From the NCBI GenBank assembly GCA_964576685.1, contig CAZNVC010000004.1, forward strand, positions 1 to 58,298: DNA of 58,298 bases. Direction: 5' to 3'. This document shows, piece by piece, positions 29,138 to 44,411 of this stretch. The first letter of the stretch is position 1. Every line of letters starts with the position of its first letter. A model generated the notes under the pieces. It worked only from the letters and a program-made list of their open reading frames with translations. It had not been told where the DNA came from and ran no database searches. The position numbers and the translations under genes were made by a program. Source of the stretch: an uncultured Candidatus Saccharibacteria bacterium. GTDB lineage: Bacteria; Patescibacteriota; Minisyncoccia; Phycocordibacterales; UBA5272.

Positions 29138-31708
29138 ATGGCTAAATTTTCTTTCAAGCGGCCACGCATCATCTCTAAAAAATTTCCTGAGATGGATTCG
29201 ACAATTGATGGCGTCTCAAAGTCTCTCAATGAGCTTGTATTTTCGTATGCAGAAAAGGTAGATAAGACGCTCCAGAAGAAGCATGTCATGATGGCTATGT
29301 CGTCGCTTGTACTGCTTCTTGTGCTTGGAAGTTTCATTTCACCAAAAGGAAAAGCAGAGAGCAGTATCTTTTATCCTGATACTTGTCTTGGTGGTTGGGT
29401 GAACCCACAGTACGCTCAAGGAGAGCAGGAAACGACTTCTAATGGCGATGAGTCCCAGTTTACAAAAAATAACTCCGCCGTACTTCCTAAGAATACCGAT
29501 GCCGAGATGTATTGTGGTAACTTCAAAGGAAAGTTTGACAGTTCTACTCGCCCTACAAAAATAATTGTTTCACTTGCACTCACTAAAGGACCAGATCTTC
29601 TCCTTGAAGACACTCTCGAAAGTGGGCTCGTCGCATCATCATCAGTGACCACAACTGCAACAACGACCGATACGCCACTTATACTTGCATCATCAACTGC
29701 ATCCTCAATACCGGAAGAAGCTTCTGCTACTTCAAGTCAGGAGAGTACTTCTTCACAGGTAGAATTAGCAACTTCAACATCATCTGAAGCGACTTCTACC
29801 GAAACTGCTACACCGATTGTTTCTCCACAGGAGCCACCGTCGGTACTCAATGGAATCATCGAATCTGTAAAGGATACCATCAACACACTTTTTGATTCTA
29901 AGAGTAGTGACACTCCTGGGACTACAGACACGGTGGTTATTCCACCACCAGCACCTGAACCAGCTCCTACACCAGCTTCAGAGTCATCTCCAGTTCAAGA
30001 GCCAGCTCCAGCTCCTGCACCAGAATCAGCACCAACATCGTACCTCCCATTACTCAAGGAAAATATCCTTTCATCGCTTTTCCAAAAAGTCTTCGCACAG
30101 GAAGAGGGGGTATCACCTACACCACCAACTGATCCAGCACCTACTCCTACTCCTCAGGAATCACTATCCCCTGTCATTACAGAACCGGCATCGAGTGAAG
30201 GAACACCACCAAGTGAAACTATACCGACAACAACGTCTAATTCACCACAAGATGGAATCACGGTAGGCACCTCAAGTGAACAAACATCGACTACTGATAG
30301 CGCAACAACTCCTTCATCAGAAACACAAGATACACATAGTACTACTACTATAGAAGAGAATCATATTGATACTCCTCAAGCATCTTCGCTTCTTGAGGCC
30401 CTTACTAACACGATAAGCGCTTCCTCGAGCGATATGTCTGCTACTAGTACCGCAACAACAGCAGATACAACAGCTACTACAACAGAAACAGCAACAGCAA
30501 CAACAACTTCAACTGACGACAACCAATTCCAGAATAACTTTCTCGAAGTACTCTATACGTTCGATGGTGTGACCTGGACATCCCTCGGCGAGCTTAATGA
30601 AATTTCTATGAAATATCGTACGTTTGAAATTCCTGTCACTGCAAGTACTACATGGGATGATATGAGTAAGCTTCAAGTGAAAGTGATCGCCAAGAAGCAT
30701 TCAAGCGACACTCCCACGGTATATCTCGATGCAATCAAAGTAGAAGTGCTTTTCGATACCACACTCCTTCATTCACATCCTGATTTTGCACGAGACACTA
30801 TCTTACAAGATGAGACAGCAGGAGGAATGCGTATTGTGACAATAATCAACAACGAGACTAATCAAGAAGAAATTTGGTATATGTATCTCGATGATGCAAC
30901 GTCTACTGATACAAATGCTTCATCTACAGATGTATCTGCAACTACAACCTCTCAAAGTCCCCAAGCGTCAATTACTTCTCAGCTTAGTGAGGGAACAAGT
31001 ACTGTAGACGGGGCAACTACTACCATTTCGACAAGCACTCCACTGATTAAGCCAGTACTTCCAAAGAACATTTGGATGAAATTTAACGGAAAAAGAAAGG
31101 AAGGTGTTTCTGGAGAAATATTTGCAGAAATCATTAAAAAAACAGACGAAGAGAAAAATAAGAGCGAAGAAGATAAGAAAAAAGAACTCCCTGATTTTAC
31201 ATTAGATGTTATTAGGAGGATTAAGGGAACCTTCTCAAATGTTGTAATCGTACAACTTCAGAAAAATAATAATGAGGCATTATGGGTATATGATATAGAA
31301 AAAAATACAGAAGAAAAAATCGGCGAAGGAACTTCAACTTCCATAGCTTCTAATTCCCCACTTGGAGTGAAGGACGGATATATTTTTTGGTTATCCGCAG
31401 ATAATTCGACAGTGTTTGCATATAATATAGTAACCAAGGATATTAAAGAGCAGCCTGTTCCACTATACGATACTTCAAAAGGTGAAAGGGGGGAGGTGAT
31501 ATTTCTCGACATACCTTGGAAAGTAATCATAAACGGAGATAAATTTTCTTTCTTTAGTGAAGCTACAGGAGAAGTATTTTCTGATGATAACGGTAGTGTT
31601 GCTGAAGCACTCCGCCAGAAACTTAAACTTGATACGGTTCTAGACAAAGAATCGCTCAGTAATCTCAATCTTCAAGTAGAGAGCATGGATGATTCTGTAA
31701 GTAGATAA
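29138..31708 (+). CDS. Membrane-anchored S/T/P-rich surface protein
   Basis: ATG 29138 lies 14 nt after TGGTATACT (29115-29123). One TM (VMMAMSSLVLLLVLGSFI), long Ser/Thr/Pro-rich tracts (PAPEPAPTPASESSPVQEPAPAPAPESAP), and a structured C-terminal region. Confidence 0.65.
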   Translation: MAKFSFKRPRIISKKFPEMDSTIDGVSKSLNELVFSYAEKVDKTLQKKHVMMAMSSLVLLLVLGSFISPKGKAESSIFYPDTCLGGWVNPQYAQGEQETTSNGDESQFTKNNSAVLPKNTDAEMYCGNFKGKFDSSTRPTKIIVSLALTKGPDLLLEDTLESGLVASSSVTTTATTTDTPLILASSTASSIPEEASATSSQESTSSQVELATSTSSEATSTETATPIVSPQEPPSVLNGIIESVKDTINTLFDSKSSDTPGTTDTVVIPPPAPEPAPTPASESSPVQEPAPAPAPESAPTSYLPLLKENILSSLFQKVFAQEEGVSPTPPTDPAPTPTPQESLSPVITEPASSEGTPPSETIPTTTSNSPQDGITVGTSSEQTSTTDSATTPSSETQDTHSTTTIEENHIDTPQASSLLEALTNTISASSSDMSATSTATTADTTATTTETATATTTSTDDNQFQNNFLEVLYTFDGVTWTSLGELNEISMKYRTFEIPVTASTTWDDMSKLQVKVIAKKHSSDTPTVYLDAIKVEVLFDTTLLHSHPDFARDTILQDETAGGMRIVTIINNETNQEEIWYMYLDDATSTDTNASSTDVSATTTSQSPQASITSQLSEGTSTVDGATTTISTSTPLIKPVLPKNIWMKFNGKRKEGVSGEIFAEIIKKTDEEKNKSEEDKKKELPDFTLDVIRRIKGTFSNVVIVQLQKNNNEALWVYDIEKNTEEKIGEGTSTSIASNSPLGVKDGYIFWLSADNSTVFAYNIVTKDIKEQPVPLYDTSKGERGEVIFLDIPWKVIINGDKFSFFSEATGEVFSDDNGSVAEALRQKLKLDTVLDKESLSNLNLQVESMDDSVSR

Positions 31709-31713
31709 TAATT

Positions 31714-32730
31714 ATGAATACTTTTTTAAAAACAAACAATAAAAGTAAAGGGACTCACGGAGCACCGTCTAGCATGATATATAAAGTGCTTAATGGGGTA
31801 ATGGTCTGTGCGCTCCTCTTCACTTATTTTTGGTATATTCCTCACCAAGACAAGCGTGTGGATGTTGTAACAAGAAATCCTTTTCTTAACCCAGCCCTTG
31901 CTGTACTAGATAAAGATAACTTGATTGTTAATTTCCAAGGACTTCGTGATTCGCTCACCTCTACTTACGAAAATCGTGATGATTATCTTGTTTCTATTTA
32001 TTTTGAGTATCTTCCTACCGGCGCCAATATTGCTGTCAACAAAGATGAAAAAATCTGGCCCGCAAGTCTTATTAAGATCCCTGTAGCGATGGCAATTATG
32101 AAAAAGGTACAGGAAAAAAAGTGGAAGCTTTCAAATGAGCTTGTAATTCTTGATCAGGACAAGGATAGTGAATACGGTGCGATGTATAAAGAGCCAACAG
32201 GAACAACCCACACGATTAAAACATTTTTGGAAGAGACGCTCATTAATTCTGATAACACTGCTCATTTCGTTTTGCTCCGCAATTTAGACGGTGATGAGCT
32301 TGAGGATGTGTATATTCACCTTGGTATGGATGACATTATTGACGCTCTTAAGAAATCGCCTACGAAAGAAGCTGAAATTGATAACCGTATTACTGCGAAA
32401 CGATATTCAATTTTCTTTAGGTCGCTCTATAACGCAACATACCTTACCCAAGAGTATTCTCAACTCTTTTTATCTATTTTAGAAAAGGCTCCCCGTGAAT
32501 TATTAAGTAGAGGAATTCCTGATGGGGTTTCATTTGTTCATAAAACAGGAATCCGTATCGATGAAGGTGTGCGAGCTGATTCAGGTATTGTCTATATACC
32601 TGGTCGACCTTACATTCTGACAGTTATGGTACAGCAAAAAAAGAAAGGGAAACTTGATGAGGAGGATATCAATAAAATATTTGAAGCTATTTCGAAAGAA
32701 GTCTATACTTATGTTGCCAATGCTCATTAA
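31714..32730 (+). CDS. Membrane-anchored serine hydrolase with class A beta-lactamase/PBP fold
   Basis: SxxK (ASLIK), SDN (NSDNT) and KTG (HKTG) motifs in canonical order. N-terminal TM. Confidence 0.75.
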   Translation: MNTFLKTNNKSKGTHGAPSSMIYKVLNGVMVCALLFTYFWYIPHQDKRVDVVTRNPFLNPALAVLDKDNLIVNFQGLRDSLTSTYENRDDYLVSIYFEYLPTGANIAVNKDEKIWPASLIKIPVAMAIMKKVQEKKWKLSNELVILDQDKDSEYGAMYKEPTGTTHTIKTFLEETLINSDNTAHFVLLRNLDGDELEDVYIHLGMDDIIDALKKSPTKEAEIDNRITAKRYSIFFRSLYNATYLTQEYSQLFLSILEKAPRELLSRGIPDGVSFVHKTGIRIDEGVRADSGIVYIPGRPYILTVMVQQKKKGKLDEEDINKIFEAISKEVYTYVANAH

Positions 32731-35700
32731 AAAAACATCAATTATTTTTTTGATCATCACTTTATTTTTTTCTGGATTTGATCCTGCTGGTTTCGTATTC
32801 TTGTTTGAAAATATTGCAAAAAATTCCTCTTCAGGAATCGTTGACGCAGTGTATTTAGCAGGAAAGAACAAAAATGTTGTTGATAGTTTTTTTGCAAAAA
32901 AGGATATTGCTCACGCAGCAATCAATACTGCAGAAAAGGAATATGCTATTGATATCGGTCCTGTGAATGGTTCAACGACAGCAAACTACGTATATACTTC
33001 ATTTTTTAACCCGGGAAGTTCTGGCCGCACGGCATATATTAAGCGTATTGCAATTCGTGCTAATACTGCATCCTCTACGGCTTCAAACTACGTTAACCTT
33101 ACTGTTCGTCGTATCACCACAGCATCTGCAGGGACACAAATATCGGCTACGAATTTTCCACAAAAAAATGCAAGCTCATCTAACTCCGTCATGGAAGTAC
33201 GGTATGGTGGGGTGGCAGTAACCTTGTCTGGTACAGTTGATTCGAGAATCATAGGGCAACCGCTTTCGGGTGCTGTTGGGTCATATTATAGTAAGAGAGA
33301 TATTACTTTTGCGAGTGGGGACGAGAAACTGATTCTCCAGCCAGGAGAAGGAATAGCGGTGTATCAAGAAACAGCAGGAACACTTTCAACAAAAGTGCGA
33401 GTACTTATTGAGTGGGATGAAACAGCAACACCCCCCACAGGTGGTGGAGAATTTTTATTTACATTTCCGAGGGTTGAAGTTGCCGCAACATCAAGTTCTG
33501 TGTATAACTCATTCTTTAATCCTTCCGGTTCAGGGAAGACTGCTGTAATACGGCGTATTTGGTTTGGCTCGGAAACATGTGATACTACCGCGGTGTATAC
33601 GAATAATCTGGTTCTCAAAAGAACGACAGCCGCCTCGGGAGGGACGGCAATTAGTGCTTCAAATATTCCAAAGAAAAATACAAGTAGTAGCAATAGTGCT
33701 ATGGAGTTTAGACACACTAATGTCACCGTCTCAACTGTTGGAGGGACGGACGCACGCATCGGACATGTTACTCCATGTGGGACCACTGCTCAAGCTCATG
33801 GTTGGCAGGAAATAAATTTTGATCAAAATGATGAAGAGTTGATTCTTCAGCAAGGTGAGGGTATAGCATTAATCTCAGAAGGAACCGGGGATGTGGATCA
33901 GCTTGTACGCATGATTATTGAATGGGACGAGGTTTCTTCCGCAAGCACTCCATCATCACAAGGGGAGTACATTTGGGCTTCTGATAAAGTCGCCTCATCT
34001 ACGCTTGCAAACACTACATTGTATTCTTTCTTTAACCCTACAGGTTCAGGGAAAACTGCAGTGATTAAACGTTTAGCAATACGCGCAAATGCTACAACGA
34101 CTGCTGCATATACTTCATTTCAATTTCGTCGCATCACTACAGCTTCTGGGGGGACGCTTATCACTGCAACTGATTTACCCAAGAAACATACAGGAACGTC
34201 AGACAGTATCATGGAAGCCAGATGGTGTCTTAGGGGGTGTAATTCAACTATTTCTGCAACGTATGTAGGGACTTCTGATGGGAAGCTGCTCTCTGTTACT
34301 GGTGCAGGTGCGGTAGCCCAAACAATAGGACAGCGTGAGATAGTTTTTGGTGCAAATGAAAAAATTATTTTACAGCCAGGTGAAGGGATAGCTCTCTATA
34401 ATGATGTTCTTACTTCGAGTGCTGCAGAGTCGGTAAAAATTGTTATTGAATGGGGGGAGCAGGCATCAACTCCGACATCGCAAGGAGAATATCTTATGGA
34501 TATTGGTCCAATTAACGGGAGTACTGCAACGACTTATAATTATATTTCATTCTTTAATCCTGCTTCATCTGGGCAAAATGCTGTTTTTAGGAGAATTGGT
34601 ATTCGAGTGGATGCGGTTGCAGCTGCTGTGTATGTGCCAATACAAATACGACGTATCACCTCTTCTTCCGGTGGTACCGTGATCGCCTCCTCTACATATC
34701 CCAAGAAACACACAGGAACAGCTACAAGTAGCATGGAAATACGTACTACTGGGGTGACTGTAGTGTATGCAGGAGCTACAACTTCGGCAATGTTGGGTAT
34801 ACAAACACCAGGAGCAGTTGCTTCTGCTGCCGCAGGGAATACAGGATATAAGGAAATCGAATTTAACGACAGTGAACCCCTCGTCCTTAAACCAGGCGAA
34901 GGGATTGTTCTCTATCAAACACCAACAGCGGGTGATGCAGATTTTCGTGTTCGATTACTAGTCGAGTGGGCAGAACAATCCACAGCACCTACCGCTCTTG
35001 GTGAATTTCTTATGATGATTGGACCAGTAAACCAGTCATTGACTGCGGGATATGTGTATGCGACATTATTTAATCCGCTTACTTCAGCAAAGAATTTTAT
35101 TTTGAGGCGTATTGGAATGCAGGTTGATAGAAGTGGTGCGGCAACTAATCCGGCGTATATCCCTGTCGCAATCAGACGTATTATTACAGCTTCAGGAGGA
35201 ACACTAGTTGCTACAACAAGTGTGCTCAAGAATACAGGCTCTTCTTCATCGACCGCAGAAGTTCGTTCTACAGGGGTCACAGCCACAATGGTGGGAGCTA
35301 CAGAATCTCGTCTTGTTGCTGGGACAATGCCTGGGGCAGTGAATCAAATATTTGGTGACAGTGAAAGTGAAATTACCTCAGGTGATGAGCTTGTGCTTGC
35401 GCCTGGGCAAGGTGTTGCTCTTTATCAAGAGCAGGCAACTGGTGATGCCAATGTTCGATATCGTTTTGCGGTCGAGTGGGCTGAAACAAGCACCTCCTCG
35501 CAAGCCCAATCACTTACCTTCTCCGTTTCTACTTCAACTATTTATTTTGGGGTTGTTTCTCCGGTGCTCGCTCGCTATGCATCGAGTACTAGTACAGGAG
35601 GAAGTGATACAGAAGTGGAAGCACATACCTTTAGTGTTATTACCAATGCTGCAAATGGATATACAGTTACCACTAGAGGGGCAACACTCACCTCCGCGTC

Positions 35701-35992
35701 TGGAACTATTGCAGCAATTGGAGCAGCAAATACAGCTTCAGCGACAGGGACTGAACAATTTGGTATTCGTATAACAGCAAGTGGTGGATCTGGAACAACT
35801 ACGACCCCGTACGCAGAAAGTGGTTTTGCATTTGCTGCGACAGCGACAACCTCTTCTCAGGTGGCAAGTGCCTCTGTTGGAGATAATGCTACAACAACGT
35901 TCTCAGTTCGTTATATTGCAAATGTGGCTCCAACTACACCTGCTGCGTCATATTCTACAAATATTATTTTCGTTGCGACTGCAAATTTTTAA
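32711..35992 (+). CDS. Giant exported protein: five ~172-aa tandem repeats plus a C-terminal WxL-like domain (CscC-like)
   Basis: Signal/TM MLPMLIKKTSIIFLIITLFF. FFNP motif at ORF-track aa 117, 287, 459, 633 and 805. Each repeat ends ..IEW[DGA]E. The C-terminus ends FVATANF. Start 32711 or 32720 overlaps the upstream stop. Confidence 0.75.
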   Translation: MLPMLIKKTSIIFLIITLFFSGFDPAGFVFLFENIAKNSSSGIVDAVYLAGKNKNVVDSFFAKKDIAHAAINTAEKEYAIDIGPVNGSTTANYVYTSFFNPGSSGRTAYIKRIAIRANTASSTASNYVNLTVRRITTASAGTQISATNFPQKNASSSNSVMEVRYGGVAVTLSGTVDSRIIGQPLSGAVGSYYSKRDITFASGDEKLILQPGEGIAVYQETAGTLSTKVRVLIEWDETATPPTGGGEFLFTFPRVEVAATSSSVYNSFFNPSGSGKTAVIRRIWFGSETCDTTAVYTNNLVLKRTTAASGGTAISASNIPKKNTSSSNSAMEFRHTNVTVSTVGGTDARIGHVTPCGTTAQAHGWQEINFDQNDEELILQQGEGIALISEGTGDVDQLVRMIIEWDEVSSASTPSSQGEYIWASDKVASSTLANTTLYSFFNPTGSGKTAVIKRLAIRANATTTAAYTSFQFRRITTASGGTLITATDLPKKHTGTSDSIMEARWCLRGCNSTISATYVGTSDGKLLSVTGAGAVAQTIGQREIVFGANEKIILQPGEGIALYNDVLTSSAAESVKIVIEWGEQASTPTSQGEYLMDIGPINGSTATTYNYISFFNPASSGQNAVFRRIGIRVDAVAAAVYVPIQIRRITSSSGGTVIASSTYPKKHTGTATSSMEIRTTGVTVVYAGATTSAMLGIQTPGAVASAAAGNTGYKEIEFNDSEPLVLKPGEGIVLYQTPTAGDADFRVRLLVEWAEQSTAPTALGEFLMMIGPVNQSLTAGYVYATLFNPLTSAKNFILRRIGMQVDRSGAATNPAYIPVAIRRIITASGGTLVATTSVLKNTGSSSSTAEVRSTGVTATMVGATESRLVAGTMPGAVNQIFGDSESEITSGDELVLAPGQGVALYQEQATGDANVRYRFAVEWAETSTSSQAQSLTFSVSTSTIYFGVVSPVLARYASSTSTGGSDTEVEAHTFSVITNAANGYTVTTRGATLTSASGTIAAIGAANTASATGTEQFGIRITASGGSGTTTTPYAESGFAFAATATTSSQVASASVGDNATTTFSVRYIANVAPTTPAASYSTNIIFVATANF

Positions 35993-36153
35993 AAGAAAAT
36001 GTTTGACTTTTGGTTAATTTATTATTTTAAAAACAATGAAATAAGGGGATTTTTAGATTTATCCACTTAGAGTACGCGGTGTGGGCGTGGTATGCTTATT
36101 GTATCTATGTAGTTGATGTACTTTGTTTTGGTATATCTAAGCTATAGATTTTT

Positions 36154-37242
36154 ATGTCACCTAAAAATTTTATAATCCCTTGCGTCAGTACCATTATTAT
36201 TGGAATCGTTCTTGTTACTCTTATTGGTCAGGCAGAGAAAGTGTATGCGCTAGCACTCACAACACTTTCAGATACTCAATCTTCGCTTAAGGTTAACACG
36301 CTTTCAGATCATACAATTCAGTTTGTAACGCAGTCGGGAATTGGAGCAGGGGAGGGATTTAGCATCACGTTTCCTTTCGGATATTCTTTGGATACTTTTT
36401 CTGTTAATAACTTTGATATGGCAACAAGTACTTCGGCTACTTGTTCTGGTTTTTCTGATGCTCTTCTGGCTTCCGGGGCTGCTTCTGGTCTCACATGGGG
36501 AGTCACACAGGGGACATCTTCTGTGTATTTCACATCAGGTACCGCCACAATTCCAGCCAATCGCTGTATACAAGTAAGAATCGGTTCAAATGCCATCTCA
36601 CAGGCCTCAGGAACAATGGTGATCACAAATCCTGTAGCATCAGGACAAAATGTGATTAGTATTTCGAGTGATCTTGGAGATTCAGGTATTATCACAGAAC
36701 ATATCATTGATAATGACACTGTTTCAATGACGGGGACAATTTCTCAGGCGCTAACTTTTAGTATTTCAACTACCACACTCTACTTTGGTACCCTTAATTC
36801 AGTCGGAGCTAAGTTCGCTTCTTCTACCAACCCTTCAGGAGACACAATAGAAACGGTTGCTCACACGCTTTCTGTTAATACTAACGCACCGTCTGGATTT
36901 ACTATCTCGGTACGAGGTCAGACACTTACCTCACAACAGAATTCAGCCAACACAATTAGTGTAATAGGAGCAACGGCAGCATCTTCAACACCAGGTACGG
37001 AGCAGTTTGGTCTAAGAGCAACTGAATCAGGGGGTATAGGGACGGCAGTAAGTTCCCCGTTTAATTCTGCAACCTCATATGGATATGCTGCAACCGCGAC
37101 AACATCAGAAATCTTAGCAACAGGAAGTGGATCCACCCCAACATCTATTTACTCGCTTAGCTATGTTGTTAACATTGCTGCGGTTACTGAGGCAGGTATT
37201 TATGCTGCTGACCTCGTGTATACTGCTACTGCTAACTTCTAA
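36154..37242 (+). CDS. Exported two-domain surface protein, paralog 1 (WxL-like C-terminal domain, CscB-like)
   Basis: Signal peptide ending VYA. Mature N-terminus LALTTLSDTQSSL. C-terminal domain from 36745 with LYFGTL, SGFTIS and the end YTATANF. Confidence 0.75.
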   Translation: MSPKNFIIPCVSTIIIGIVLVTLIGQAEKVYALALTTLSDTQSSLKVNTLSDHTIQFVTQSGIGAGEGFSITFPFGYSLDTFSVNNFDMATSTSATCSGFSDALLASGAASGLTWGVTQGTSSVYFTSGTATIPANRCIQVRIGSNAISQASGTMVITNPVASGQNVISISSDLGDSGIITEHIIDNDTVSMTGTISQALTFSISTTTLYFGTLNSVGAKFASSTNPSGDTIETVAHTLSVNTNAPSGFTISVRGQTLTSQQNSANTISVIGATAASSTPGTEQFGLRATESGGIGTAVSSPFNSATSYGYAATATTSEILATGSGSTPTSIYSLSYVVNIAAVTEAGIYAADLVYTATANF

Positions 37243-37361
37243 ATATAAGTACAATTTTTTGATTTCAAGTATTATCCACTTCAAAAAGTCTTAATTATCA
37301 TGCTACAATGATGAAAACGTACAACAAGCGAATGTTTTTTGCTTGAGTTGTACAGTAAGCT

Positions 37362-38462
37362 ATGTCACCTAAACAACTTCTCATTCCCGTTATAAATTAT
37401 CTTATCATCGGGGTAGTAATCATCACGAGTGTGGTTCAGGTAAAAATTGCCTACGCAGCTGCCCTTACTACACTCTCCGATACCCAGTCAACGCTTACTG
37501 CCGGAGCCCTCTCGGACCACACTATTCAGTTCGTCACCCCAACTGGTATCGCTGCAGGACAAGGAATAGCAATTACATTCCCTGCATATCCAACAGGATA
37601 CGCTACAGGAACGTTCGCTATTGCTAACTTCGACTTCGCTACCAGTACCTCAGCTACTTGTTCTGGTTTCACAGACGCTCTACTTGCTGCTGGTGCAGCT
37701 TCCGGACTCACATGGGGCGTCACACAAGGTGCATCTTCCACAATTTACATCACTTCTGGTACTGCAGTAGTTCCTGCTAACCGTTGTGTGCAGATTAGAA
37801 TCGGTTCTAACGCTATTTCTCAAGCTTCAGGAACTGCACAGATAACTAACCCAACCTCAGCTACTACTACCGCGATTAATATTACAAGTTCGTTCGGAGA
37901 TAATGGTTCTATTATGCAGAATATTATTACTAGTGACACTGTTTCTGTGAGTGCGACTGTCCAACAGTCAATTTCTTTCGTTATTTCAACTACCACCATC
38001 TATTTCGGTGCCCTCTCTTCAACAGGTCCTAAATTTGCTTCTTCTACCAACTCTTTAGGTGATGCTGCAGAAACCATTGCTCACACCTTACAAGTCACCA
38101 CCAACGCTCCTTCTGGCTACACTATCTCTATACGTGGTCAGACTCTCACTTCACAACAGAACTCCGCTAACACTATTACTGCAATCGGTGCTTCGGTTGC
38201 CTCTTCTTCACTTGGTACAGAACAGTTCGGTATACGTGCTACTTCTACCGGTGGGACAGGGGCGACAATAGATACAACATTTGGGGCCCTTACTTCGTAT
38301 GGGTATGATGCCACAGCGACCACGTCAGCTACGTTTGCTACCGGAAGTGGTGCAACGAACCAAACCACTTTTGGTCTTCGTTATGTTGCAAACATCGCAG
38401 GAACAACAGAGGCAGGTACATATGTTGCGAGTATTGTCTACGTTGCTACAGCGAATTATTAG
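37362..38462 (+). CDS. Exported two-domain surface protein, paralog 2
   Basis: Signal peptide ending AYA. Mature N-terminus AALTTLSDTQSTL. C-terminal domain from 37965 with IYFGAL, SGYTIS and the end YVATANY. Confidence 0.75.
   Translation: MSPKQLLIPVINYLIIGVVIITSVVQVKIAYAAALTTLSDTQSTLTAGALSDHTIQFVTPTGIAAGQGIAITFPAYPTGYATGTFAIANFDFATSTSATCSGFTDALLAAGAASGLTWGVTQGASSTIYITSGTAVVPANRCVQIRIGSNAISQASGTAQITNPTSATTTAINITSSFGDNGSIMQNIITSDTVSVSATVQQSISFVISTTTIYFGALSSTGPKFASSTNSLGDAAETIAHTLQVTTNAPSGYTISIRGQTLTSQQNSANTITAIGASVASSSLGTEQFGIRATSTGGTGATIDTTFGALTSYGYDATATTSATFATGSGATNQTTFGLRYVANIAGTTEAGTYVASIVYVATANY
37501..37861 (+). repeat. 361-bp block 100% identical to 38711-39071
   Basis: Base-for-base identity by eye across the printed lines. 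The flanks diverge on both sides. Confidence 0.95.
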
Positions 38463-38571
38463 CGGAATTCCTTACAATTACACCTTATCCACACTATTTT
38501 GATTATAAAAGTGGTAAACTTACCATCGTAAGATGTAGAAATCTTCAGTTTATTAGTAAAATATACATTTT

Positions 38572-39672
38572 ATGTTTAAAAAGAACCTCTTAACTTCTAT
38601 CACTAGCATTTTTGTTGCTGGTGTTATTTTTTTCGCCTCATTTGCTCAGATTGAACTAGCGTTTGCTGCCGCTCTCACCACGCTCTCTGACACCCAATCA
38701 ACTCTAGCAGCCGGAGCCCTCTCGGACCACACTATTCAGTTCGTCACCCCAACTGGTATCGCTGCAGGACAAGGAATAGCAATTACATTCCCTGCATATC
38801 CAACAGGATACGCTACAGGAACGTTCGCTATTGCTAACTTCGACTTCGCTACCAGTACCTCAGCTACTTGTTCTGGTTTCACAGACGCTCTACTTGCTGC
38901 TGGTGCAGCTTCCGGACTCACATGGGGCGTCACACAAGGTGCATCTTCCACAATTTACATCACTTCTGGTACTGCAGTAGTTCCTGCTAACCGTTGTGTG
39001 CAGATTAGAATCGGTTCTAACGCTATTTCTCAAGCTTCAGGAACTGCACAGATAACTAACCCAACCTCAGCAACAAGTACCTCAATCACCATTACCAGTT
39101 CGTTTGGAGATAGTGGTTCGATTACAGAGAACATTATTACCAATGATACTGTGGCGATGACAGGACAAGTTAATCAATCAATATCTTTCTCGATTTCTAC
39201 AACAACCATCTATTTCGGAACCCTCAGTTCTACTGGTGCTAAATACGCATCATCAACAAACATTTCTGGCGACAGTACAGAGACCGTTGCTCACACTGTT
39301 ACCGTGAACACAAACGCACCTTCCGGTTTCACTGTTTCTGTCCGTGGCGCAACCCTTACCTCACAGCAGAACTCCGCTAACACCATTACTCAAATCGGTG
39401 CGACCGCTGCTTCTTCCACTACTGGTACAGAACAGTTCGGTATTCGAGCAACAGAAACAGGAGGAACTGGTACATCGATTTCAGATCCATTTAAATGGAC
39501 TACATCATACGGATACCAAGCAACTGCAACAACATCAGCAGTACTTGAGACAGGAAGTGGGTCGACATCCAACTCAACAACTTCTATTCGTTACCTTGCT
39601 AACATTGCATCAATTACTGAAGCGGGTACCTATGCTGCAAGTCTCACATACGTTGCAACTGCTAACTTCTAA
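38572..39672 (+). CDS. Exported two-domain surface protein, paralog 3
   Basis: Signal peptide ending AFA. Mature N-terminus AALTTLSDTQSTL. C-terminal domain from 39175 with IYFGTL, SGFTVS and the end YVATANF. Confidence 0.75.
   Translation: MFKKNLLTSITSIFVAGVIFFASFAQIELAFAAALTTLSDTQSTLAAGALSDHTIQFVTPTGIAAGQGIAITFPAYPTGYATGTFAIANFDFATSTSATCSGFTDALLAAGAASGLTWGVTQGASSTIYITSGTAVVPANRCVQIRIGSNAISQASGTAQITNPTSATSTSITITSSFGDSGSITENIITNDTVAMTGQVNQSISFSISTTTIYFGTLSSTGAKYASSTNISGDSTETVAHTVTVNTNAPSGFTVSVRGATLTSQQNSANTITQIGATAASSTTGTEQFGIRATETGGTGTSISDPFKWTTSYGYQATATTSAVLETGSGSTSNSTTSIRYLANIASITEAGTYAASLTYVATANF
38711..39071 (+). repeat. 361-bp block 100% identical to 37501-37861
   Basis: See the partner feature. 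Confidence 0.95.
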
Positions 39673-39712
39673 GTAAACTATCTAGAATTATTCGAATAAT
39701 TAAAAAGCAACC

Positions 39713-40696
39713 ATGACACCACAACATATTCTTAAAAAGACCCTTAGGACAATTACTCTAGCTGGACTTGCATTTACTGTACTTAGCGCTCAGGCTATTA
39801 CCGTATCACCTGCACGTGATGAAGTCACCGCAGACCCAGGGGAGACCATCACTAGTTCTTTCACGGTAATTAACGAACAAGGTACTGATCAGACGTTTTA
39901 TACCTCTGTAGAAAACTTTGAATCCCAAGGAGAAAGTGGAACACCTAACTTTACTGATTCAAAGGAGGGTCTCCCTTCATGGGTTAAGGTTGAAGAGAAG
40001 ATAGTCCTTAAAAAAGGTGAGCGAGTAAAGATTCCTTATACCGTTGTAGTTCCAAAGGATGCTGATGCTGGAGGCCACTTCGCCGCTATCTTTCTTTCAA
40101 CTGTACCTCCTTCAACTGGTGATGGTCAGGTTTCTGTTGGAGCAAAGACAGGAATGCTCATCCTCCTTAAAGTAACAGGAGATGTAAAGGAAAACGGTGG
40201 ATTACTTACCTTTGCGCTTAAAGAAGGAAAGAAAGTACTCACCACTACTCCTATTAATTTTGTGTATCGATTCCAGAACAGTGGTAACGACAGAGTTAAG
40301 CCAGAAGGGAAGATTATTATTAAGAATACTTTCGGTATGCAAGTAGGGGAGCCTATTGATGCTAATAATTCAACAGGGAACGTGCTTCCAGGCAGTGTGC
40401 GACGTTTTGAAGTTCGTTATGGAGAGAACGAGGCTCCTGCAGTATCAGCGCCATTCTTTGATCATGTAAAGTACGAGATGGATAACTTTGCACTGGGTAT
40501 GTATACCGCAACACTTGACCTTTCTTTTGGTAACACAGGAAAGGCAACATCCTCTCTCACCTACTTCATGTTCCCATGGCAATTACTTGCTGTTATCCTT
40601 GGTGGACTCATTGTTGTTGTTCTCTTGCTTATTACACTTGTTAAGCACTACAATAAATGGATTATCAAGCAAGCACGAGCAGCAGCAAAGAAATAA
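39713..40696 (+). CDS. DUF916/DUF3324-like (CscA-like) surface protein with C-terminal TM anchor
   Basis: Signal peptide ending AQA. Segments TVSP...PGETITSSFTVINEQ and VVVPKDADAGGHFAAIF match the pattern of WxL-locus DUF916 proteins. C-terminal TM followed by a basic tail (KQARAAAKK). Confidence 0.6.
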   Translation: MTPQHILKKTLRTITLAGLAFTVLSAQAITVSPARDEVTADPGETITSSFTVINEQGTDQTFYTSVENFESQGESGTPNFTDSKEGLPSWVKVEEKIVLKKGERVKIPYTVVVPKDADAGGHFAAIFLSTVPPSTGDGQVSVGAKTGMLILLKVTGDVKENGGLLTFALKEGKKVLTTTPINFVYRFQNSGNDRVKPEGKIIIKNTFGMQVGEPIDANNSTGNVLPGSVRRFEVRYGENEAPAVSAPFFDHVKYEMDNFALGMYTATLDLSFGNTGKATSSLTYFMFPWQLLAVILGGLIVVVLLLITLVKHYNKWIIKQARAAAKK

Positions 40697-41625
40697 CTAT
40701 TGCGAAGTATATCAAGAAGGTTATCTTGGTACTGGTTACCAGCCTTTCTTCCTCGTTGTGTGTGTATGCACAAATAGCTACAAACCCTCTTACTGTTAAT
40801 GTATCTGTTACTGCGGCGGTGCTTGTGAGTCCTGGGGTTCATCCTGACACACTTCCTACACCAGTTCCTGGGCCAATCAATATGGTAGATACGGTTGATG
40901 CGGTTGTTTTCAAAGGGGCAGCATACCCAGGAAGTACCATTTCTGTACTCAAGAACGGGATTGTTATCGCAGAATTACCTGCACGCACAGATGGCACCTT
41001 TGAGATTCATGTTAGAAATATTGCTGCTGGGACCTATAGTTTCGGAGTTCGTGCAGAAGATAAGGATCACGTAACTTCAAAGTTACTTCTCTTCACCGTC
41101 TTTATTTCTTCTGGAATCGCAACTATTGTTGACGGTATTCTTGTTCCACCAACTATCACTTCTGATAAAATAGAAGTAAAAAAAAGAGAACCTATTTCTT
41201 TTTTTGGTAGTGCTGCGCCAGGGACTGAGATACTCCTCTCTTTTCTTTCAGGAGTAGAGTTACTTAAAAAAACCTCCGCGAATGCGAGTGGCACTTGGTC
41301 GTACAATCTTGACACGACATCATTATCCTACGGGGATTATGATGCAAAGGCGCGAGTCGTCACCGCAAGTAGTCTTTCTCTTTATTCTGACCCACTTCCA
41401 TTTCGTATTGGGGATGTTACTCGTATGCGCAGTAAAGCGTCCTCACTTAACGGCTTTAGGAAACGCTGTGATTTAAATGATGATGGTCGTGTGAATTTGC
41501 TTGATTTCAGTATTATGGCTTATTGGTATAAACGTTTAGGGTTTCCTCAGAAGGTCGACCTTAATACCGACAATAGAGTTAACCTTACAGACTTAAGTAT
41601 CCTCGCGTATTGTTGGACAGGATAA
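40657..41625 (+). CDS. Exported Ig-like repeat protein with C-terminal type I dockerin
   Basis: Two Ca-binding repeats, DLNDDGRVNLLDFS and DLNTDNRVNLTDLS (41467-41622). Signal peptide ending VYAQ. The start is uncertain and overlaps the upstream gene. Confidence 0.75.
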   Translation: MDYQASTSSSKEITIAKYIKKVILVLVTSLSSSLCVYAQIATNPLTVNVSVTAAVLVSPGVHPDTLPTPVPGPINMVDTVDAVVFKGAAYPGSTISVLKNGIVIAELPARTDGTFEIHVRNIAAGTYSFGVRAEDKDHVTSKLLLFTVFISSGIATIVDGILVPPTITSDKIEVKKREPISFFGSAAPGTEILLSFLSGVELLKKTSANASGTWSYNLDTTSLSYGDYDAKARVVTASSLSLYSDPLPFRIGDVTRMRSKASSLNGFRKRCDLNDDGRVNLLDFSIMAYWYKRLGFPQKVDLNTDNRVNLTDLSILAYCWTG

Positions 41626-41634
41626 CTACTCACC

Positions 41635-42597
41635 ATGAACTCACTAAACTCTTTTTTTAAAAAAATCATAGTTAGCTTCTTGTGGTGTTATGCGACACTA
41701 TCTTTCGCGTATGCGGCACAAATTACTCTTCAGGCACCAAATAAGGCACTTGCAAACAGACAACCCATTGTTGTGCTTGTGTATCTTGACCCTGAACAAG
41801 ATACCTTGAGTGGTCTCGGTGGAGATTTTTCATTTCAATCAGATATGTTCACCGTTAGTGATATAAGTACCGAGAACAGTGTCGTGTCACTTTGGGTGAA
41901 ACAACCAGGGCAATCTGAAGAAAAATATCTCGATAATCGTACTCATGTCACTTTTGAAGGGATTTTCCCAGGCGGGTATGATGGTGTCCGTAGTCCATAT
42001 TATCAAGGAAAGAGACCAGGAATTTTATTTTCAGTGACGCTTATTCCAAAAAACAAAGGAGCGGGGACACTTCTTATTGATGATATTACGCTTAATCGAT
42101 TTAATAGCAGTGCGACACCTATTCCGACTACAAATGTTATACATTCAATCGTTGTTCCCGAACTTCTTCCTGTTGCATCACCACAGACAGGTGCGATGAT
42201 AAGAGTTAAAAGCCCTACACTCACAGCATTTGTTACCCGTACACCACTGGTGGATAATAATGCATGGTATCTTGTGGTCAACGAACGAGAAGGGAAAAGT
42301 GCGATACAAGAAATACTTGTTGCAGAAACAGATGATTATAATGGGGAATTGGTGGATGAAAATAAATGGCATACGGCAAAAAATCCTTACATACTCTTTT
42401 ATCAAGATCGATCAAAGTTCATTCATGTAAAGATTATCTACAGTAATTCTACGTATACCACGTTTACTCTTCTTCCTGTTGAAAACTCTACAAGTATTTT
42501 AACTATCTCACGTATACTAGTAGGTATAGTCATAGTACTCTCTTTGATGTACTTTTATGTTAAATCCTTTTTCATTTCTCTTAAGAAACAGCAGTAG
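41635..42597 (+). CDS. Cohesin-like domain protein with C-terminal TM anchor
   Basis: Signal peptide ending AYA. Cohesin-like beta-sandwich pattern (IVVLVYLDPEQDTLSGLGGDFSFQSDMFTV...). C-terminal TM ILVGIVIVLSLMYFYV. Confidence 0.6.
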   Translation: MNSLNSFFKKIIVSFLWCYATLSFAYAAQITLQAPNKALANRQPIVVLVYLDPEQDTLSGLGGDFSFQSDMFTVSDISTENSVVSLWVKQPGQSEEKYLDNRTHVTFEGIFPGGYDGVRSPYYQGKRPGILFSVTLIPKNKGAGTLLIDDITLNRFNSSATPIPTTNVIHSIVVPELLPVASPQTGAMIRVKSPTLTAFVTRTPLVDNNAWYLVVNEREGKSAIQEILVAETDDYNGELVDENKWHTAKNPYILFYQDRSKFIHVKIIYSNSTYTTFTLLPVENSTSILTISRILVGIVIVLSLMYFYVKSFFISLKKQQ

Positions 42598-44278
42598 GCT
42601 TTCTCTTCATTTACTTTTAGGAGTATTTTTCATTCTTGGAAATGCGATAAACGTGTATGCAGCTAATCTCGTCATCTCTCCATCATCTGTCAGCACAAAA
42701 GTTGGGAAAACTTTTTCGGTTGATGTGGTTGTAAATAATAATATTGGGGCAATTAACGCTGTTTCGTCATTGATTTCATTCCCAAAGGATGCACTCCAGG
42801 TAGTTTCACTTTCCAAGAAGGACTCTTTTATTAATCTTTGGGCTGAAGAACCTGCATTTTCTAACGAGAAGGGGACAGTGACGCTTGAAGGGGTAGCGCT
42901 TAATCCAGGTTTTGATAAAGCAACAGGGAAGGTACTCACTATTACGTTTAAAGCGGTGCAAGCAGGAAATGTAAGTGTTTCAGTAACATCAGGACAAGTG
43001 CTCGCTAATGATGGAAACGCAACCGATGTCCTTAAAACAACTGGATCAGCATTTATTTATGTTAATGAAAATGATGCAAAAGCTCCTGAGGTTGCGGTCA
43101 CCACTGTTGTTCCTGTTATTACCTCACCGACACACCCAGACAGTAATCTTTGGTATGGAAGACGTGACGCATCATTTGAATGGAAAGTCCCAGAGGATGT
43201 GACTGCTGTGAGAACTATATATAGTGATAAGGAAACAGATAAGCCAACAAAGGTATATGACCCGCCTGTTGCTAATAGGTCGTTTACTGCTGACGGGGAT
43301 GGTGTGTTCTTTATGTTTGCGCAGTTTAAAAATGCGAGCGGATGGGGAGCGATAGCAAAATATAAATTCCAGATAGACACCGAAGCACCTTCTTCGCTTA
43401 AGGCATCATTCCCAGATAGTAATGTGACCACCAACCAAACTCCTTCTGTACTAGTCCTTGCCGAAGATGCGCTCTCTGGGATAGGAAAGATAACAATGAG
43501 TGTCGACAGTGGTCAACCAATTGAATTTCCTGTCGACCCGTCTAATCTCTATCGTCTTCCAAAACAAACCGCAGGGAATCATACCGTTGTAGTGAGTGCG
43601 GTTGATAACGCAGGAAACGCAAGCACTGTATCACTTGATTATACAATACAGACAATTACCCCTCCGGTGATCACCGAATACACTAAGAAGGTTGATTTTG
43701 ACAATAAATTCAAAATTCTCGGAGCAACATACCCACAGTCAACCGTACAAGTAACACTTACCGATGCAGACGGTAATGTGTTTACATCAGAAACAAAATC
43801 AAATGATTCAGGTGTATTCTCTCTTCTTTGGGACAAGAGCCTTGACTCCGGTGTCTATGAGATGCGAGCGCGTGTCCTTGATGGAAGGGGGTCTGTGAGT
43901 GATTATACAGAGACAAGAGTGGTGGTTGTCGAGAGAATGGTACTAGTGCGTTTTGGTATTTTTGTGATGAACTGGCTCTCAGTTATTCTTATCGTGATAG
44001 TGGCAGCTATCGCAATCTCTGCGACCCTCTGGTACTCCTTCCTTCAATTTTCACGCTTTAGAAGAAAAGTTAAGCGTAAGTTGTCAGAGGTAGAAAATAC
44101 GCTTCGTGTCAATGTGCAAGAACTCCGTAGAGACACCGAAGAATTCCATGATATTTTGGTAAAAGCAGAGCGAAAGCGAGAACTTACCAAGGAAGAGCAA
44201 ATGATACTTAAGAAATTCAAGAAACGACTTGAGATTACAGAAAAAGAAATAGAAGCAAAACTTGAAAAAGCAGTTTAA
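42557..44278 (+). CDS. Cohesin domain protein with Ig-like modules, TM anchor and cytoplasmic coiled-coil tail
   Basis: Cohesin pattern LVISPSSVSTKVGKTFSVDVVVNN..INAVSSLISFPKDALQVVS...GKVLTITFKAVQAGN. TM WLSVILIVIVAAIAISATLWY followed by a Lys/Glu-rich tail. Confidence 0.7.
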   Translation: MLNPFSFLLRNSSRLSLHLLLGVFFILGNAINVYAANLVISPSSVSTKVGKTFSVDVVVNNNIGAINAVSSLISFPKDALQVVSLSKKDSFINLWAEEPAFSNEKGTVTLEGVALNPGFDKATGKVLTITFKAVQAGNVSVSVTSGQVLANDGNATDVLKTTGSAFIYVNENDAKAPEVAVTTVVPVITSPTHPDSNLWYGRRDASFEWKVPEDVTAVRTIYSDKETDKPTKVYDPPVANRSFTADGDGVFFMFAQFKNASGWGAIAKYKFQIDTEAPSSLKASFPDSNVTTNQTPSVLVLAEDALSGIGKITMSVDSGQPIEFPVDPSNLYRLPKQTAGNHTVVVSAVDNAGNASTVSLDYTIQTITPPVITEYTKKVDFDNKFKILGATYPQSTVQVTLTDADGNVFTSETKSNDSGVFSLLWDKSLDSGVYEMRARVLDGRGSVSDYTETRVVVVERMVLVRFGIFVMNWLSVILIVIVAAIAISATLWYSFLQFSRFRRKVKRKLSEVENTLRVNVQELRRDTEEFHDILVKAERKRELTKEEQMILKKFKKRLEITEKEIEAKLEKAV

Positions 44279-44316
44279 CAAGCTGTATGCCCATGTAGGA
44301 GTTGTGCCGCCATACA

Positions 44317-44362
44317 AAAACAGGACCAAAGTAAGACAATAGTCTAAAAGGTCCTGTTTTTT
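44317..44362 (+). terminator. Rho-independent terminator closing the surface locus
   Basis: Stem aaaacaggacc/ggtcctgtttt followed by a T-tract. Confidence 0.65.
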
Positions 44363-44394
44363 AATGTTTTTCACTATACGTTACTCCGTATCCC

Positions 44395-44403
44395 TGCTAT
44401 ACT
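44395..44403 (+). promoter_or_regulatory. Extended -10 box TGCTATACT, 8 nt upstream of the ATG at 44412
   Basis: Third occurrence of the identical 9-mer. Confidence 0.55.
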
Positions 44404-44411
44404 TTTCTCAT

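Follow-up and report, generated by a model that had tools for sequence, protein, structure and literature searches.

A ten-gene locus of a CPR/Patescibacteria bacterium that probably encodes a Pam-type pilus with a putative cohesin-dockerin base

The question raised by positions 29138 to 44278 of the window, the whole 58,298-nucleotide stretch of DNA that was analysed, is which surface structure is encoded by ten consecutive, co-directional open reading frames (G1 to G10, plus strand) whose products are all exported or membrane-anchored. An N-terminal hydrophobic segment (signal peptide or signal anchor) is present in 10 of the 10 proteins according to a Kyte-Doolittle scan, a heuristic and not a SignalP prediction, and the same scan places C-terminal transmembrane helices in G7 (residues 292-310), G9 (287-305) and G10 (468-486). 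G7 and G8 overlap by 40 nt, and G9 and G10 by 41 nt. The operon is closed by an intrinsic terminator-like hairpin at 44316-44363 on the plus strand (AAAAACAGGACC...GGTCCTGTTTTTT followed by a U run; dG -20.8 kcal/mol, z = -5.45), which a generic terminator scan missed because its loop is long; within the locus, terminator-like matches do not exceed those in shuffled sequence (19 vs 12.7 +/- 3.9). These coordinates and this hairpin verify the ten-gene, single-strand block of exported or anchored proteins with a terminator behind it that was outlined in the preliminary description, and the LPXTG partner that it reported as lacking is indeed absent, the motif being found in none of the ten locus proteins.

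The centre of the locus is composed of one large and three small proteins that, as had been proposed, share one C-terminal domain of approximately 170 aa, which is 41% identical between G3 and G4 and has many invariant columns in the alignment. G3 (32711-35992) comprises 1,093 aa when read from its ATG, or 1,112 aa if the TTG start codon at 32654 were used, and consists of five tandem repeats of approximately 170 aa, each spanning GE[YF] to EW[DGA]E, followed by a linker-like segment and the shared domain (aa 965-1093); its orthologues in related loci are 52-75% identical. G4 (36154-37242; 362 aa), G5 (37362-38462; 366 aa) and G6 (38572-39672; 366 aa) are paralogues in which a linker connects an N-terminal domain to the shared C-terminal domain. 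Alignments reveal that the linker is conserved, carrying ..QALTFSISTTTLYFG.. in G4 and the motif VSVSATV in G5. G4 additionally contains a cysteine pair (Cys97/Cys138), and G5 and G6 have a 362-bp run of identical DNA in common.

A family for the shared domain is suggested by the NCBIfam models of the Pam system (NF058578/79/81), a pilus described in Ca. Mycosynbacter amalyticus in a 2026 bioRxiv preprint (doi 10.64898/2026.03.03.709456). Specifically, G3, G4, G5 and G6 score 71.6, 69.7, 65.9 and 62.5 bits, respectively, against NF058581 (cut-off 55), so that by sequence match their C-terminal domain is of the CPR_Pam_pilin_C family, and the locus is therefore placed in the Pam pilus system. 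The Pam system is composed of pilins (PamA/B/E), chaperones (PamC/D), a tip (PamT) and a tether (PamR); its pilins bear signal peptides, its PapD-like chaperones are membrane-anchored, an usher is absent, and donor-strand exchange of PamA/PamB has been shown by cryo-EM (doi 10.64898/2026.03.03.709456). From the family match, a truncated-Ig groove and a donor linker are predicted for the pilins studied here. G3 is a candidate adhesin or tip-proximal subunit, and its place in the fibre is uncertain because, unlike the published tip pilin PamT, it possesses a linker-like segment; the window contains no PamT-like single-domain gene. Taken together, these data suggest that the locus is most likely a pilus operon of Parcubacteria type, and it is probable that all ten genes constitute a Pam-family adhesive pilus operon of the usher-less donor-strand type in an ultrasmall CPR/Patescibacteria bacterium.

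A second reading, essentially that of the preliminary description, treats G3 to G6 as surface monomers that do not polymerise into filaments but are retained at the envelope by G7 in a complex of WxL/Csc type, with one G7 strand completing each C-terminal domain. A WxL identity of that domain was proposed and is not supported: Pfam WxL matches none of 53 sequences (the window proteins and 49 relatives), and no significant similarity emerges when its profile is compared with that of a verified WxL alignment (hhalign probability 3%, with the last strand alone aligned), while the curated Pam pilin model is passed. Weak collinear motif likenesses that the Pam C-terminal domain shows to WxL nonetheless favour this reading, namely GY/F-T-[IV]-[ST]-V vs GWxLxV and LTYVATANF vs LTWxLxDxP, as does the presence of one large protein and several small ones with a common C-terminal domain beside a WxLIP-type protein, which mirrors the composition of WxL clusters (PMC10599100). 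Against it stand the filaments that members of the Pam domain family form by cryo-EM, and the N-terminal domain, conserved linker and C-terminal domain that G4 to G6 share with PamA/B/E.

[quoted passage not shown] The best PDB matches of its AF2 model (pLDDT 83) in Foldseek are the Enterococcus faecium WxLIP crystal structures 9i1y/9i25 (E 3e-12), which include WxLIP bound to a long WxL, and the next are the chaperone-usher chaperones CfaA, CsuC, Caf1M and DraB (E 1e-9 to 1e-7) and RbmA. Although G7 itself lies under the Pfam WxLIP threshold, WxLIP_PGBD is matched by 46 of 85 diverse members of its family (best E 2.9e-7), and the family profile aligns with bona fide Firmicute WxLIP/DUF916 over both domains at hhalign probabilities of 98.2-98.5%. 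No NCBIfam Pam model is matched by G7, nor is there a sequence-level match to PapD or Fimbrial models. A strongly conserved hairpin, HFAAIFLST...VSVGAKxGML, coincides with a low-confidence loop of the model; in WxLIP, the same position is taken by the strand predicted to complete the sandwich of WxL (PMC10599100). G7 is thus, as its DUF916/CscA assignment had anticipated, a WxLIP (DUF916/DUF3324, CscA-type) relative, with a fold like that of chaperone-usher chaperones, and is a candidate membrane-anchored pilin chaperone in the role of PamC/PamD. With the evidence on G3 to G6 weighed beside that on G7, we regard the non-filamentous complex as unlikely and retain the pilus operon as the preferred reading.

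Downstream of G7 the locus encodes three proteins with a different set of modules. G8 (40657-41625; 322 aa) begins with a signal peptide and an N-terminal strand; a Pro/Gly-rich linker then leads to Ig-like domains, and the protein ends in a type I dockerin (aa ~265-322), for which the expected Pfam Dockerin_1 match was obtained at 30.4 bits (cut-off 22.9); G8 also matches Big_6. The dockerin is kept in every complete G8 orthologue read, and G8 alone among the locus proteins has a Pfam dockerin match, the other nine having none. In G10 (42557-44278; 573 aa; AF2 model pLDDT 81), a cohesin-like domain (aa ~35-172) and three Ig-like domains precede the transmembrane segment, behind which a long K/E-rich helix (aa ~490-572), also conserved, extends into the cytoplasm; G10 matches Pfam Big_13 as well. 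G9 (41635-42597; 320 aa) combines a C-terminal transmembrane anchor with an N-terminal domain related to the cohesin-like one of G10, whose HMM matches G9 residues 26-111 (E 7e-7). The two membrane-anchored cohesin proteins that had been described are upheld in part: two G10 orthologues (P0174 and P0217; ~70-73% identical) score 31.6 and 29.0 bits against Pfam Cohesin (cut-off 24.1), but the G10 of the window does not reach that threshold, and G9 lies below it and has no direct Pfam match.

Do these three genes belong to the pilus? The pilins G3 to G6 and the chaperone candidate G7 could form a Pam-type system beside a functionally separate cohesin-dockerin module (G8 to G10) that anchors something else. 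The published pam operon contains neither cohesin nor dockerin, the similarity of G8 to PamR is faint (among G8 orthologues, best E 1.5e-4; model cut-off 300 bits), and the pairing within G8 to G10 is putative. In a survey of 65 CPR loci, with G7 identity down to 39%, the order of a protein with the Pam C-terminal domain, one to four pilins, G7, G8, G9 and G10 is kept in approximately 50 species-level genomes. A gene with the Pam domain lies upstream in 54 of 55 related loci, and downstream of G7, across deep divergence, G8 follows in 50/51 and G10 in 49/51, and G9 is detected in 39/51, so that the co-conservation as a block that was anticipated earlier is observed. This conservation, the 40-nt overlap with G7 and the encoding of a single dockerin protein argue against two systems, as does the short conserved N-terminal strand of G8 (VSVTAAV, aa 49-55): the motif [VIL][STN][VIL][ST][AG]x[VI] occurs in this strand in 40 of 57 G8 orthologues vs 0.02 expected, and in 26 of 99 pilin-like open reading frames, there at the linker only. 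Two separate systems are accordingly, in our judgement, distinctly improbable. Within a single pilus operon, G8 is a candidate terminator or adaptor that would take the PamR role without a transmembrane helix, and G10 is a candidate membrane scaffold for its dockerin.

Cohesin and dockerin modules, together with GH15 and GH57 genes a few kb downstream, could also point to a cellulosome-like enzyme scaffold for polysaccharide degradation. The dockerin, however, is not fused to a catalytic domain, the sole enzyme of the locus (G2) has no dockerin, and the GH genes, located past the terminator and read from the other strand, show no dockerin match; we consider such a scaffold highly improbable. 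That enzyme, G2 (31714-32730; 338 aa), is a membrane-anchored serine hydrolase of the class-A beta-lactamase/PBP fold, its transmembrane segment being placed by the Kyte-Doolittle scan. G2 matches Pfam Beta-lactamase2 (E 4.4e-41), scores 96 bits against NCBIfam bla_class_A, under the cut-off of 200, has intact motifs (S118-x-x-K, S179-D-N, K277-T-G) and is found in many, though not all, related loci. G1 (29138-31708; 856 aa) starts with a signal-anchor, is rich in S/T/P in its middle region (S+T+P = 43% over residues 200-560) and lacks a meaningful Pfam or NCBIfam match; in the majority of related loci, an orthologue of G1 precedes the pilin genes.

The family assignments, folds, homologies and synteny of the locus lend themselves to a model of a Pam-family pilus, in which we infer pilin polymerisation, subunit order and the roles of G8, G9 and G10. 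All ten products would be exported by Sec. G4 to G6, in which a linker strand joins the N-terminal domain to an incomplete Ig-like C-terminal domain, would polymerise by donor-strand exchange, and G3, with its Pam domain behind the five repeats, would be an adhesive, probably distal subunit. As pilins emerge from export, G7, held in the membrane by its C-terminal helix, would cap their open groove and pass them on, a hand-over at the membrane requiring no usher. G8 would end the fibre, its pilin-linker-like strand filling the groove of the last pilin, while its dockerin would bind the cohesin-like domains of membrane-anchored G9 and G10, a non-covalent tether standing in for the transmembrane helix of PamR. 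A dockerin protein docked on membrane cohesins thus appears to take the place of a PamR-type tether. G1 and G2 would be conserved accessories, possibly for passing the cell wall.

Comparison with the Pam pilus highlights both similarities and differences. Firstly, the two have in common a pilin C-terminal domain of one family (NF058581, above cut-off), several paralogous pilins of ~38 kDa, export signals on all components, a chaperone made of two Ig domains and a C-terminal transmembrane helix, the lack of an usher, and a CPR host. Secondly, PamT and PamR equivalogs are absent here, matches falling far under the cut-offs; a 1,093-aa five-repeat subunit contrasts with a small tip pilin, and a candidate terminator with a dockerin contrasts with one bearing a transmembrane helix; two membrane cohesin-like proteins are added, as are, upstream, a hydrolase with the beta-lactamase fold and an anchor protein rich in S/T/P. 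The lineage labels also differ, being Parcubacteria/Nomurabacteria here and Saccharimonadia/Microgenomatia for Pam, and while pam operons are reported in the neighbourhood of ATP synthase (doi 10.64898/2026.03.03.709456), ATP synthase is not among the ten nearest flanking open reading frames scanned. The novelty assigned earlier to this combination of parts holds only partly: the Pam pilus was published in 2026, but the preprint makes no mention of WxL/DUF916, cohesin-dockerin or Parcubacteria (doi 10.64898/2026.03.03.709456). The locus ties Pam pili to WxL/Csc loci, a link that the preprint does not contain (doi 10.64898/2026.03.03.709456).

WxL clusters, known from Lactobacillales, Listeria and Bacillus, encode small WxL, large WxL and WxLIP proteins, the latter being DUF916, DUF3324 and a transmembrane segment (PMC10599100). 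G7 is homologous to WxLIP over both domains (hhalign 98%) with the same signal peptide, two-Ig and transmembrane layout, the locus logic, a large protein and several small ones with a common C-terminal domain, is alike, and in both the WxLIP-type protein is predicted to donate a strand that completes the sandwich of its partner. In contrast, the domain common to G3 to G6 has no WxL motifs and no Pfam match, an LPXTG (CscD) partner is lacking, and G7 falls under the Pfam WxLIP threshold; moreover, WxL proteins are described as peptidoglycan-bound monomers and not filaments. With chaperone-usher pili (Pap/Fim, CFA/I, Csu, Caf1), the locus shares the G7 fold (CfaA, CsuC, Caf1M, DraB), the proposed donor-strand complementation and exchange, and a large subunit, here a candidate adhesin, beside the pilins. 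It lacks an usher, an outer membrane and any match by sequence to the PapD or Fimbrial models, and differs further in the membrane anchoring of the chaperone and in the donor strand, which per the Pam structures is an inter-domain linker and not an N-terminal extension. Finally, the type I dockerin of G8, with its two duplicated Ca2+-binding segments, and the membrane proteins with a cohesin-family N-terminal domain resemble cohesin-dockerin anchoring. Unlike cellulosomal and non-cellulosomal pairs, this arrangement lacks enzymes as well as SLH or sortase anchoring; the proteins that carry its cohesins cross the membrane once, one of them having a long helix in the cytoplasm, and the proposed cargo is the base of a pilus.

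The locus consists of ten consecutive open reading frames on the plus strand (29138-44278), designated G1 to G10 in order. A hydropathy scan, from which alone signal peptides were judged, places an N-terminal hydrophobic segment in all ten products and C-terminal transmembrane helices in G7, G9, and G10. The genes are tightly packed, with G7 and G8 overlapping by 40 nt and G9 and G10 by 41 nt, and the block ends at a strong hairpin and U run (44316-44363; dG -20.8 kcal/mol, z = -5.45). Terminator-like matches within the block occur at chance level, a promoter scan likewise returned a chance-level result (43 found vs. 40.4 expected), and the pilin intergenic regions contain no convincing hairpins or attenuators. 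The reading frames, hydrophobic segments, and terminal hairpin bear out the preliminary description of a ten-gene block of exported or membrane-anchored proteins; so does a motif scan for its statement that an LPXTG partner is missing, since LPx[TSA]G is absent from all ten proteins and no CscD-type anchored partner is encoded. G2 is a hydrolase of the PBP/beta-lactamase fold with intact catalytic motifs, and the roles of G2 and of G1, the S/T/P-rich anchor protein, are ones that we infer. The flanks (19079-22554 and 44364-51022) encode phosphoketolase, acetate kinase, an FAD-linked oxidase, a ROK kinase, GH15, and GH57, and the FAD-linked oxidase gene always adjoins the locus in relatives; the ATP-synthase neighbourhood reported for pam operons was not seen among the flanking genes scanned. 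A tRNA-Gln(CTG) gene lies just upstream of the locus on the minus strand (28648-28719), and a second minus-strand tRNA gene is cut off by the window end (58246-58298). The window itself seems to correspond to a complete contig of 58,298 bp.

The large protein G3 (1,093 aa) and the smaller G4, G5, and G6 (~365 aa) have in common a C-terminal domain of ~170 residues ending in ..VATANF/Y. This domain was originally taken to be of the WxL type, an identification that the searches do not support: the W-x-L motif is absent from it, and the Pfam WxL model (PF13731) matches none of 53 sequences (G3-G6 at E <= 1, together with 49 relatives of the C-terminal domain). Pfam returns nothing for G3-G6, and the domain instead matches NCBIfam model NF058581, 'CPR_Pam_pilin_C', in all four proteins (G3 71.6, G4 69.7, G5 65.9, and G6 62.5 bits; cut-off 55). 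Comparison of the Pam C-terminal domain with 78 verified small WxL proteins by hhalign gave a probability of 3%, with only the last strand aligned (eaGtYxxxLTYvaT in Pam, YxttLTWtL in WxL). In a relaxed alignment, collinear motifs can be followed between Pam and WxL sequences (LTFSIS..TIxFG and LSID..SIxFG; G[YF]T[IV][ST]V and GWxLxV; the C-terminal strand), and the score exceeds those of all 150 column shuffles, a lenient control that points to a weak residual signal only; a relationship between the two domains is possible. The analogy with Csc/WxL loci nevertheless pointed in the right direction for one component and for the logic of the system as a whole; where it went wrong was the identity of the shared domain.

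The NCBIfam Pam models originate from a 2026 preprint in which two filaments of Ca. Mycosynbacter amalyticus were solved by cryo-EM (doi 10.64898/2026.03.03.709456). PamA and PamB consist of an N-terminal beta-sandwich and a truncated Ig-like C-terminal domain joined by one linker strand, and the C-terminal domain accepts the linker of its neighbour. The pam operon has no usher; its other products are the PapD/FimC-like chaperones PamC/D, which have a C-terminal TM helix, the tip pilin PamT, the minor pilin PamE, and PamR, a tether resembling RbmA that has a strand at its N-terminus and a TM helix (doi 10.64898/2026.03.03.709456). G4-G6 agree with the Pam pilins in size and layout, and two cysteines are conserved in their N-terminal half. 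Their C-terminal domain is directly preceded by a highly conserved stretch, QSLTFSISxxTIxFG, a sequence layout that may reflect two domains joined by a candidate donor linker, as in Pam pilins. G3 comprises five ~170-aa repeats followed by the same linker-like segment and C-terminal domain. A single-domain tip pilin without linker, as PamT is, was not found in the window: only four genes carry the Pam C-terminal domain, each of them together with an N-terminal part and a linker-like segment, and their matches to the PamT model are weaker (19-34 bits; cut-off 240). G5 and G6 contain an identical run of 362 bp (37500-37861 and 38710-39071) in the part encoding the N-terminal domain, and their C-terminal halves differ, which suggests that the tandem pilin paralogues recently underwent gene conversion, assembly collapse being the alternative. 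In addition, an HMM of the Pam C-terminal domain gives secondary alignments within the N-terminal domains of G5 and G6 (residues ~71-182; pilin genes 36154-39672), and the two pilin domains may be diverged duplicates of one another.

The component for which the Csc/WxL analogy proved sound is G7, a 327-aa protein that had been likened to DUF916/CscA. By itself, G7 gives a sub-threshold match to the Pfam model WxLIP_PGBD (DUF916; E 0.13, 12.7 bits vs. a cut-off of 27.3). The PF06030 signal is systematic, appearing in 28 of 44 close relatives and in 46 of 85 diverse representatives of the G7 family (best E 2.9e-7), a family that contains 8,167 clusters at 50% identity (E <= 1e-3). The AlphaFold2 model of G7 (pLDDT 83) consists of two beta-sandwich domains and a long C-terminal helix (289-326), and hydropathy places a TM segment at 292-310. 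Its top Foldseek matches in the PDB are the Enterococcus faecium WxLIP structures 9i1y and 9i25, the latter bound to a long WxL protein (E 3e-12), followed by the chaperone-usher chaperones CfaA, CsuC, Caf1M, and DraB (E ~1e-9) and by RbmA. Firmicute loci for comparison, 68 in number, were retrieved via the WxLIP motif NQIDKxxxYFDLK, their WxL and WxLIP genes being confirmed by Pfam; hhalign aligns the G7 family with these WxLIP proteins across both domains (213 columns, E 4.5e-14, 98.2% probability). Plasmids searched by tblastn gave 11 weak matches, several of them in actinobacterial genes annotated 'DUF916 domain-containing protein', one product of which lies above the Pfam threshold and aligns with the G7-family profile at 98.5% probability (E 1.5e-15). 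Because of the Pfam matches of its relatives, the top Foldseek matches, and the hhalign result, G7 is a WxLIP/CscA homologue with a pilus-chaperone fold. This link is visible only by fold and profile-profile comparison: PDB sequence searches with G4, G7, G10, the G7-family profile, the Pam C-terminal-domain profile, and the actinobacterial DUF916 protein yielded nothing meaningful. NCBIfam gave no match between the G7 family and any Pam model, and it is only by its fold that G7 corresponds to a PapD/FimC-like chaperone held by a TM helix at the C-terminus. The residues most strongly conserved in G7, HFAAIFLST...VSVGAKxGML, lie on either side of a loop modelled with low confidence and line up with the equivalent part of WxLIP. 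According to published AlphaFold predictions, a strand of WxLIP fills out the WxL sandwich (PMC10599100), and the same act, a strand completing the sandwich of a partner, is proposed for PamC/D (doi 10.64898/2026.03.03.709456).

Downstream of G7, the dockerin and cohesins of the preliminary description fared differently. G8 contains Ig-like domains and a type I dockerin (Pfam PF00404, 30.4 bits vs. a cut-off of 22.9) with two Ca2+-binding repeats, and the duplicated segments DLNxDxxVNLxDFSI are kept in every complete orthologue read, so that the dockerin is confirmed. The two membrane-anchored proteins are putative cohesin carriers, as judged through relatives: two G10 orthologues (about 70-73% identical) reach 31.6 and 29.0 bits against the Cohesin cut-off of 24.1, covering 130 of 139 model positions, and an HMM of the G10 N-terminal domain finds the N-terminus of G9 (E 7e-7), but the window's own G9 and G10 have no match to PF00963 at E <= 1. 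The G10 model comprises a cohesin-like domain, three Ig-like domains, a TM helix, and a long conserved cytoplasmic helix. Cohesin identity is not settled by this model, because Foldseek with the full-length structure returned generic Ig/FN3 arrays, with a cohesin+FN3 entry only at rank 22. The cytoplasmic helix that follows the TM segment of G10 (residues ~490-572; 44024-44275) is K/E-rich and highly conserved, and may serve to contact a partner in the cytoplasm or to pass on a signal from the base of the pilus. In G8, Cys271 (41467-41469) and Cys319 (41611-41613) flank the dockerin (..RCDLN.., ..YCWTG), and a disulfide clamp across it is possible since both are conserved in closer orthologues. 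A cellulosome was also considered as a reading of the locus and was set aside, since none of the enzymes encoded there bears a dockerin.

The N-terminus of G8 displays a short strand motif, V[ST][IV][ST]AxV, after the signal peptide, and then a Pro/Gly-rich spacer. The motif is present in 40 of 57 G8 orthologues against 0.02 expected, and in pilins it recurs only at the linker between the N- and C-terminal domains. The PamR model scores 14.3 bits with G8 (cut-off 300) and gives weak matches in 4 of 42 orthologues; G8 is not a tether of the PamR type, its C-terminus being a dockerin and not a TM helix. Small WxL proteins of Firmicutes (loci L068-L135) also have, after the signal peptide, a short strand (..atVtFea..) and then a Pro-rich spacer, the layout seen at the G8 N-terminus (40780-40830), and when 1,490 CPR ORFs are searched with a WxL HMM, about 24 of the 40 best weak matches are to G8 orthologues. 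WxL proteins could thus carry a donor strand at their N-terminus.

The genes were also expected to be conserved as a block, and they are. Across 65 loci from species-representative CPR genomes, the arrangement is preserved down to a G7 identity of 39%: [G1][G2], then a gene whose product has the Pam C-terminal domain, one to four pilins, G7, G8, G9, G10, and the FAD-oxidase gene. Counting for each gene only loci with enough flanking DNA, a Pam-C-terminal-domain gene lies upstream in 54 of 55 loci, G8 is present in 50/51, G10 in 49/51, and a detectable G9 in 39/51. All 65 syntenic loci derive from Patescibacteria-type MAGs, and within this set the arrangement is confined to CPR. The source protein names read Parcubacteria or Pacebacteria, independent submitters label related MAGs Parcubacteria, Nomurabacteria, or Paceibacterota, and at NCBI the name 'Paceibacterota' is now synonymous with the phylum Minisyncoccota. 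Several loci (L027, L038, L040-L042, L045, and L050, together with many TPA_asm loci) come from records titled Polynucleobacter, Gammaproteobacteria, Bacteroidia, or 'uncultured Candidatus Saccharibacteria'; as these hold the same CPR locus, they are probably mis-binned or coarsely labelled MAGs.

Taken together, these data suggest a donor-strand pilus assembled without an usher, in which G4-G6 would be the shaft pilins, G3 the adhesive large subunit, and G7 the membrane-anchored chaperone. G8 is the best candidate for the role of PamR: its N-terminal strand would cap the last pilin, its dockerin would plug into G9 or G10, and G9 and G10 would hold the fibre to the membrane. The anchoring step and the order of subunits are those that we infer.

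A broader reading is that Pam pili of CPR, WxL/Csc clusters of Firmicutes, and DUF916 loci of Actinobacteria are branches of one ancient usher-less, single-membrane system in which a membrane-anchored two-Ig chaperone (WxLIP/CscA, PamC/D, and G7 being equivalent) completes and hands over incomplete-sandwich subunits; we offer it tentatively, giving it somewhat less than even credence. If true, WxL proteins may be chaperoned, or even polymerised, by donor-strand exchange, and a cohesin-dockerin pair would tether the Parcubacteria-type fibre to a membrane scaffold whose cytoplasmic helix is conserved. No description of cohesin-dockerin pilus anchoring was found in the literature searched. In the actinobacterial loci of Cellulosimicrobium and Clavibacter plasmids (L011, 7046-8888; L012, 4936-6750), the DUF916 gene is preceded by a gene for a ~210-aa secreted protein of no known family ending in ..GSYSSTLTLTLFE, and the pair sits among GH43 and LamG-like genes. 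Actinobacteria may have in this pair an equivalent of the WxL/Pam logic; the small secreted protein and the Pam C-terminal domain, compared by hhalign, gave 1.8% probability, which is not significant.

Much of bacterial diversity belongs to the CPR, whose members live attached to other cells, and for this reason their means of attachment is a central question. Pam is the only structurally defined CPR-specific pilus and has been reported mainly for Saccharimonadia and Microgenomatia; the locus described here is a distinct and very widespread version of it, the G7 family alone exceeding 8,000 clusters at 50% identity. By way of the chaperone homology, Pam is linked with the WxL/Csc loci of lactobacilli, enterococci, and Listeria, whose part in adhesion and virulence is under study.

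Compared with known systems, the locus differs from chaperone-usher pili in having no outer-membrane usher: none of its proteins matches an usher-family Pfam model, and the ten products are otherwise accounted for. It differs from WxL/Csc clusters in that a WxLIP/CscA-type protein, G7, is present without detectable WxL-domain proteins and without an LPXTG partner. With respect to Pam, both the family of pilins and the broad principle of assembly have been described before, in the 2026 preprint and its NCBIfam models, and the preprint makes no mention of Parcubacteria, WxL, cohesin, or dockerin (doi 10.64898/2026.03.03.709456). G8 ends in a dockerin at the point where PamR has its TM helix, and the two genes that follow it code for cohesin-like proteins anchored in the membrane. 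Beyond the Pam description, then, are the Parcubacteria-type locus architecture, the five-repeat large subunit, and the cohesin-dockerin trio in the place of PamR, as well as the demonstrable homology of the chaperone-like protein to Firmicute WxLIP/CscA and actinobacterial DUF916 proteins.
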